The translations under genes and the position numbers were made by a program. From Escherichia coli (lineage in GTDB: Bacteria; Pseudomonadota; Gammaproteobacteria; Enterobacterales; Enterobacteriaceae), in NCBI RefSeq assembly GCF_051903065.1, contig NZ_CP178438.1: DNA of 64,000 nucleotides; one strand, given 5' to 3'. The notes below the pieces were generated by a model. The model ran no database searches. It was not told where the DNA came from and saw nothing but the letters and a program-made list of their open reading frames with translations. Shown here one piece after another: positions 20,603 through 21,176 of this stretch (positions are counted from its first letter, which is position 1; each line of letters starts with the position of its first letter).

Positions 20603-21115
20603 GTGAGTGGAATACTGACGCGCTGGCGACAGTTTGGTAAACGCTACTTCTGGCCGCATCTCTTGTTAGGGATGGTCGCGGCGAGTTTAGGTTTGCCTGC
20701 GCTCAGCAACGCCGCCGAACCAAACGCGCCCGCAAAAGCGACAACCCGCAACCACGAGCCTTCAGCCAAAGTTAACTTTGGTCAATTGGCCTTGCTGGAA
20801 GCGAACACGCGCCGCCCGAATTCGAACTATTCCGTTGATTACTGGCATCAACATGCCATTCGCACGGTAATCCGTCATCTTTCCTTCGCAATGGCACCGC
20901 AAACGCTGCCCGTTGCTGAAGAATCTTTGCCTCTTCAGGCGCAACATCTTGCATTACTGGATACGCTCAGCGCGCTGCTGACCCAGGAAGGCACGCCGTC
21001 TGAAAAGGGTTATCGCATTGATTATGCGCATTTTACCCCACAAGCAAAATTCAGCACGCCCGTCTGGATAAGCCAGGCGCAAGGCATCCGTGCTGGCCCT
21101 CAACGCCTCAGCTAA
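20603..21115 (+). CDS. secM: Secretion monitor SecM (translation-arrest leader peptide for secA)
   Basis: 170-aa product from GTG at 20603 inside the longer ORF; signal peptide; C-terminal arrest motif [17 protein letters not shown]. Confidence 0.93.
21050..21100 (+). other. Coding region of the SecM ribosome-arrest motif (F..WI..GIRAGP)
   Basis: Motif read directly in the secM translation, 5 codons before the stop and about 75 nt upstream of the secA start. Confidence 0.85.
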
Positions 21116-21176
21116 CAACAATAAACCTTTACTTCATTTTATTAACTCCGCAACGCGGGGCGTTTGAGATTTTATT

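Follow-up and report, generated by a model that had tools for sequence, protein, structure and literature searches.

An intact copy of the SecM-secA arrest switch at the secM-secA junction of Escherichia coli, almost certainly of the ordinary, well-known kind

The window analysed here, a 64,000-nucleotide stretch of an Escherichia coli genome (RefSeq assembly GCF_051903065.1, contig NZ_CP178438.1), carries secM directly upstream of secA on the same strand. The secM coding sequence occupies 20603-21115 (+), with a GTG start, 170 codons and a TAA stop, as defined by translation and by its Pfam and NCBIfam matches; K-12 and strain EC1515 both have an annotated secM at the corresponding position. 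The GTG at 20603 is both the annotated and the family-supported start; in a mechanical list of open reading frames the same frame reaches upstream to a TTG at 20450 (221 aa), the extra part being 20450-20602. The downstream gene, annotated as secA, encodes 901 aa at 21177-23882 (+), and all of the SecA Pfam domains were matched in the reading frame that ends at 23882 (SecA_DEAD, P-loop_SecA, SecA_SW, SecA_PP_bind and SEC-C). Between the two genes lies a spacer at 21116-21176 (+), which by translation and direct reading is exactly 61 nt long and leads to the secA ATG at 21177. A sequence-only reading of the same window had placed the arrest-peptide coding region and the junction at 21050-21176, with 61 nt separating secM from the secA ATG, and both statements agree with our translation and count, the interval running from the first base of the arrest motif to the last base before the ATG.

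The 1001 bases from 20400 to 21400 agree with several E. coli chromosomes at 100% identity and have a match in 5424 of the 5426 complete E. coli genomes, where the annotation reads "secA translation cis-regulator SecM"; gene order in the matching chromosomes is ftsQ-ftsA-ftsZ-lpxC-secM-secA-mutT. The 151-nt junction itself has an identity of at least 99% in 5056 complete E. coli genomes. Three of the 5424 matching places are on plasmid-labelled records and two of the 5426 complete genomes have no secM-secA match, cases that are probably oddities of replicon labelling or assembly. Relative to K-12 MG1655, 7 nucleotide differences were counted in 595 nt (the 513-nt secM, the spacer and the first secA codons), none of them in the spacer, and the sole change to the SecM protein is T170S, caused by a G instead of a C at 21111. 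The regulatory element had been described as intact, and its presence in the same form in thousands of E. coli genomes, with T170S as the one protein difference from K-12, bears this description out.

Family scores of the 170-aa SecM protein are far beyond chance, both for the Pfam family SecM (PF06558, E 4e-58, 195.9 bits versus a cutoff of 25) and for the NCBIfam equivalog NF002799 (231.2 bits versus a cutoff of 100), while the cutoffs of the SecM_small models (PF10818 / NF038363) were not reached (20.9 bits versus 26.1, and 25.9 versus 45, respectively). Residues 1-169 are identical to those of the characterised K-12 protein, and codons 1-37 (20603-20713, +) would, by this identity with K-12 SecM, encode its Sec signal sequence. 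The C-terminus holds the complete 17-residue arrest motif, F150 to P166, at 21050-21100 (+), encoded by TTC AGC ACG CCC GTC TGG ATA AGC CAG GCG CAA GGC ATC CGT GCT GGC CCT; its translation conforms to the FxxxxWIxxxxGIRAGP consensus and equals the published motif (PMC4737659, PMC10951299), just as the sequence-only reading had reported. Residues 150-166 with this consensus suffice for stalling (PMC4737659, PMC10951299, PMC10987492), and cryo-EM together with biochemistry has placed Gly165 in the P site and Pro166 in the A site of the stalled ribosome (PMC10951299). In the window, by translation, these are the GGC codon at 21095-21097 and the CCT codon at 21098-21100, so that the stall site spans 21095-21100 (+) with the P/A assignment of PMC10951299. 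The post-arrest codons QRLS and the TAA stop follow at 21101-21115 (+); the motif had been said to end five codons before the stop, which holds in the sense that four sense codons come after Pro166 and the stop is the fifth codon. In the K-12 sequence the ribosome stalls at Gly165/Pro166 and export frees the stall (PMC10951299, PMC4737659), and stalling and export release would be expected at the present locus, given that they are known for the identical K-12 sequence.

According to the published model, a stem-loop sequesters the secA Shine-Dalgarno (SD) sequence and is disrupted by the stalled ribosome (PMC10987492, PMC10951299, PMC4737659). The putative SD core at the junction is GAGA at 21166-21169 (+), 8 nt upstream of the ATG, as judged from its position and from that model. 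Free RNA from 21040 to 21190 folds to -40.2 kcal/mol (z-score -2.86 versus shuffles), and both minimum free energy (MFE) and ensemble folding returned a 13-bp helix with -15.4 kcal/mol on its own, in which a 5' arm at 21099-21112 (+; CUCAACGCCUC-A-GC, from bases 2-3 of the Pro166 codon through the Ser170 codon) pairs with a 3' arm at 21155-21168 (+; GCGGGGCG-U-UUGAG). The 5' arm is wholly within the secM coding sequence, and the A/U-rich 5' part of the spacer, 21116-21145, forms the loop. The SD bases G21166-A21167-G21168 pair with C21101-U21100-C21099, that is, with the first base of the Gln167 codon and with bases 3 and 2 of the Pro166 codon, and the helix therefore has its start within the codon that occupies the A site of the stalled ribosome. 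The probability that the SD GAG pairs with 21099-21101 was 0.99 in 151-, 241-, 741- and 951-nt contexts and 0.72 in a 648-nt context, and in a duplex scan the post-Pro segment paired with the SD arm at -19.2 kcal/mol versus a background of -9.2 ± 3.6. In isolation, the SD arm pairs most strongly with 20717-20734 (CCAAACGCGCCCGC, in early mature SecM; -22.9 kcal/mol), a candidate for alternative sequestration that we rejected, since its strength is confined to Escherichia/Salmonella-like loci and folds of the whole transcript leave it unused.

The sequence-only reading had proposed folding 21040-21190 with and without a ribosome footprint, and the outcome is that the helix buries the SD in free mRNA and that the footprint lowers the cost of opening the ribosome-binding site (RBS). 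For the stalled state, with the P site at 21095, the footprint 21083-21110 was forced to be unpaired, and the opening cost was taken over 21163-21182. The footprint on the arrest site removes the helix and raises the ensemble free energy by ~15 kcal/mol, and the opening cost falls from 8.17 kcal/mol in free mRNA to 5.92 kcal/mol with one stalled ribosome, 4.29 kcal/mol with one further ribosome queued behind it, and 3.98 kcal/mol with two queued ribosomes, a drop of 2.3 to 4.2 kcal/mol, which in these models matches the published switch in both direction and magnitude. In parallel, the probability that the SD GAG is unpaired rises from 0.01 in the free state to 0.19-0.34, depending on the number of ribosomes modelled. 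When a single stalled ribosome is modelled, the folds predict new pairing of the SD arm with 21047-21062 (codons 150-153), which leaves the SD GAG ~20% unpaired, and exposure was better when queued ribosomes covered 21047-21062 or when the downstream RNA alone was folded. The claim that stalling exposes the secA RBS is thus upheld in these models as far as loss of the helix and cheaper opening are concerned, but SD exposure in the thermodynamic model is incomplete with a single stalled ribosome, which leaves the SD partly re-paired. The T170S position lies outside the motif, after the stall site and inside the 5' arm of the helix, and shifts the predicted free-state ensemble energy by ~1 kcal/mol; we regard the change as neutral for the switch, because the K-12 base at 21111 gives the same opening costs (for the free RBS, 8.07 kcal/mol versus 8.17 kcal/mol with the base found in the window). 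The QRLS ending is also present in 66 of 84 Enterobacteriaceae species, which makes Ser170 the majority state.

Those 84 species come from a scan of 100,044 species genomes (one genome per species) with a degenerate DNA pattern for FxxxxWIxxxxGIRAGP. The scan gave 86 matches, of which 85 are at the 3' end of secM in Enterobacteriaceae and 84 of these have secA just downstream; the one of the 85 that lacks a complete junction (L062) is on a contig that ends inside the motif. The match L075 was rejected as a SecM locus and is a chance match of the degenerate pattern. The motif is kept at the protein level in the 84 species while synonymous sites vary, and every one of the 84 complete junctions has its stop as the fifth codon past the proline. 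Aligned with the window, the spacer is 55-68 nt long in the 83 other species, the exception being L061 with its insertion, and the SD GAG is invariant in 84 species, with an SD-AUG gap of 8 nt in 80 of them. In L061 (639-900; the contig is titled Citrobacter freundii M-21 and its SecM is Atlantibacter-like) the insertion of ~120 nt sits in the spacer, i.e. in the loop of the long helix, and contains the palindrome ACTTACTGAAGTAAGT; it may be a small mobile repeat. Both helix arms are kept in L061 and are still paired in its MFE fold despite the insertion.

In the alignment of the 84 junctions, 87.4% of the helix cells are standard pairs, versus 31-48% when the partner arm is slid by 1 to 3 columns. 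Within the long helix, the same alignment showed 2 doubly changed pairs, a level of covariation that does not exceed that of shuffles, since the two arms hardly vary; the arms are constrained independently, the one by the PQRLS coding sequence and the other by the SD. The helix is thus conserved without covariation, and its structure therefore rests on published mutagenesis and not on comparative data, which are compatible with the long helix but are not proof of it. RNAalifold on the MAFFT alignment of the 84 junctions returned neither the long helix nor a local hairpin described below, but only short invariant pairings in the coding region, with no compensatory changes. As this alignment is not structure-aware around the indel-rich spacer, named structures were tested and the sequences were folded one by one. 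When each species was folded separately, the SD paired with the Pro-to-stop segment at P>0.5 in 50 of 84, and the post-Pro/SD helix was weak or unpredicted in about a third of the species with the canonical motif. Loci with the canonical motif and the fixed Pro-to-stop distance and with a weak or no predicted helix are L007, L028, L041, L077, L014, L031, L048, L086, L039 and their relatives; duplex energies there range from -2 to -12 kcal/mol, and the lineages concerned include Cedecea, Buttiauxella and 'Klebsiella sp. BIGb0407'. For some other species, folding predicts that the F150 codon region, and not the post-Pro segment, is the pairing partner of the SD.

A second structure, a local hairpin at 21146-21160 (+), was found by folding and by extraction of hairpins species by species. 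It has the form CUCCGC-AAC-GCGGGG (-7.0 kcal/mol), sits five bases upstream of the SD, and partly excludes the long helix (and is partly excluded by it), because GCGGGG is common to the hairpin and to the 3' arm of the helix. Per-sequence extraction recovered the hairpin at the same place in 83 of 84 species with a hypervariable loop, and its energy is below that of shuffles in 84 of 84. Its stem also carries compensatory changes (CUCCGC/GCGGGG, CUUCGC/GCGAGG, CUCCGA/UCGGGG, GCUCUGCC/GGUAGGC, CCGU/ACGG and UCUGC/GCAGG). The alignment register makes column-wise counting weakly informative for this hairpin, and per-sequence extraction is the better evidence. Unlike the long helix, the local hairpin bears the usual signature of a selected structure. 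It may be one of the helices already described in the original mutagenesis paper of 1997 (McNicholas et al.). Two other readings of the region were rejected, namely the hairpin as a terminator (GC-rich, then U-rich), which a terminator scan did not flag and whose U tract is interrupted, and a promoter-like match over the secA RBS at 21164-21192, which is at chance level (1 found versus 1.2 expected).

The local hairpin forms in all of the stalled-state folds, and upon stalling the freed GCGGGG is probably captured by it; from these models we infer that such capture would help to hold CGUUUGAGAUUUUAUUAUG single-stranded, in an anti-sequestering role. This raises the idea of a switch with three elements and not a single stem-loop, in which the covarying hairpin acts as the anti-sequestering element, blocking re-pairing with C-rich segments of secM (21047-21062 and 20717-20734) so that the SD stays single-stranded. 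We consider this idea rather unlikely, and if it were true, lineages with the arrest motif but without the post-Pro/SD helix would use a rewired version of the switch.

The locus is almost certainly the ordinary, intact E. coli SecM-secA secretion-monitor arrest switch, which is already well known. What our analysis shows is the sequence with its coordinates, the identity of the locus to the characterised element, and a set of predicted structures that are consistent with the switch. The sequence-only reading had invoked the established model, in which stalling remodels mRNA structure, and this model applies here, as the published motif is present, a bona fide secM is directly upstream of secA, and folding reproduces the stem-loop. 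Under the model, secM and secA are co-transcribed, and in mRNA that is untranslated or freely translated the last secM codons (21099-21112) would pair around the secA SD (21155-21168), a pairing that would keep secA initiation basal. Once a ribosome has Gly165 in its P site and Pro166 in its A site, the nascent FxxxxWIxxxxGIRAG segment lodged in its exit tunnel would block peptide-bond formation with Pro-tRNA and stall it; the stalled footprint, roughly 21083-21110, would then cover the 5' arm, so that the helix is barred and the secA RBS becomes easier to open, while the local hairpin 21146-21160 probably takes up the freed GCGGGG. Pull by the translocon on the SecM signal sequence would release the arrest, and a working secretion system would accordingly keep the stall short and an impaired one would lengthen it, with more SecA made in the latter case. 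Stalling, release by export and secA induction are taken from the literature, where the arrest is lifted once the Sec machinery engages the signal sequence, and impaired secretion prolongs it and induces secA (PMC4737659, PMC10951299, PMC10987492).

Plain translational coupling would offer a simpler account, in which a ribosome on the last five secM codons, or one terminating at 21113-21115, melts the helix, the level of secA is set by the rate of secM translation alone and the arrest motif is not essential. The position of the 5' arm entirely inside the secM coding sequence fits such coupling, and in our folds the long helix is likewise lost when the ribosome sits on the stop codon (footprint 21098-21125), and the SD GAG is then unpaired with a probability of 0.29. 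What coupling does not account for is the protein-level conservation of the 17-residue motif in 84 species with variable synonymous sites, or the invariant distance from the proline to the stop. Moreover, stalling is relieved by mutations at Arg163 or Pro166, and secA is induced when the arrest is prolonged (PMC10951299, PMC10987492), and in the cited literature the K-12 P166A mutant loses secretion-responsive secA induction with secM translation unchanged. We therefore hold coupling to be very improbable as the explanation of the locus; it probably sets the basal level of secA and does not replace the arrest. A spatial role of the SecM arrest, reportedly put forward by the Ito laboratory in 2005, would have the arrested complex anchor the secM-secA mRNA to the membrane, with SecA made beside the translocon and SD exposure not the main role. 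The intact signal sequence and arrest motif would fit such a role, but it does not explain why the SD pairs strongly and position-specifically with the stall-site codons or why the Pro-to-stop distance is fixed; having an even slimmer chance of being the explanation than coupling, it is better seen as an added function than as an alternative. Neither coupling nor a spatial role displaces the canonical model of a stem-loop that is disrupted by the arrested ribosome.

Among known systems the closest is the prototype secretion monitor itself, E. coli K-12 SecM-secA (b0097-b0098), which has the same gene order (lpxC-secM-secA-mutT) and is identical to the window in its GTG start, 170-aa length, arrest motif, 61-nt spacer and SD region; K-12 SecM ends in Thr170, whereas the SecM of the window ends in Ser170. 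The short SecM of Pasteurellaceae (SecM_small, PF10818 / NF038363) is likewise a monitor upstream of secA, with a signal peptide and a C-terminal arrest sequence (PMC10987492), but unlike the SecM of the window it has a shorter spacer between signal and arrest sequence and a different motif, e.g. RGSP in Mannheimia (PMC10987492). VemP-secDF2 of Vibrio and MifM-yidC2 of Bacillus follow the same logic, in that an arrest released by export disrupts a stem-loop masking a downstream SD (PMC10987492), but the sequences, arrest motifs and target genes of VemP and MifM are unrelated to those of SecM, which makes them analogous in working and not members of the family. The elements at 21099-21112, 21146-21151 and 21155-21168 also resemble the alternative-hairpin logic of drug-dependent leaders of the ermC type, in which a ribosome stalled on an upstream open reading frame remodels alternative hairpins and frees a downstream SD; the SecM stall is intrinsic to the peptide and relieved by mechanical pulling, whereas the ermC-type stall is induced by an antibiotic.

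A scan of the whole window with Rfam covariance models gave no match at gathering score over 21040-21190, and the absence of an Rfam family at the junction reflects curation, not novelty. The same scan gave five matches in the window, none at the secM-secA junction: PssrA ('plasmid-encoded Shigella sRNA A'; 18122-18211, +; 105.5 bits), which here is on the chromosome and over the 3' end of ftsA and the start of ftsZ; STnc40 (23858-23927, +) at the junction of the secA 3' end and mutT; two copies of the REP-type naRNA4 (24331-24407 and 24447-24524, +) between mutT and yacG; and the tp2 sRNA (35799-35912, -).

Taken as a whole, the locus is a normal, functional-looking copy of a well-studied nascent-peptide translational switch, so that there is nothing unusual to explain at it, and it matters as annotation only. 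For specialists in arrest peptides, the comparison across Enterobacteriaceae yields several by-products, namely the invariant distance from the proline to the stop, a long helix that does not covary, a local hairpin that does, and species that carry the motif without the canonical helix, all of which leave the accepted model of secretion monitoring by SecM unchanged.
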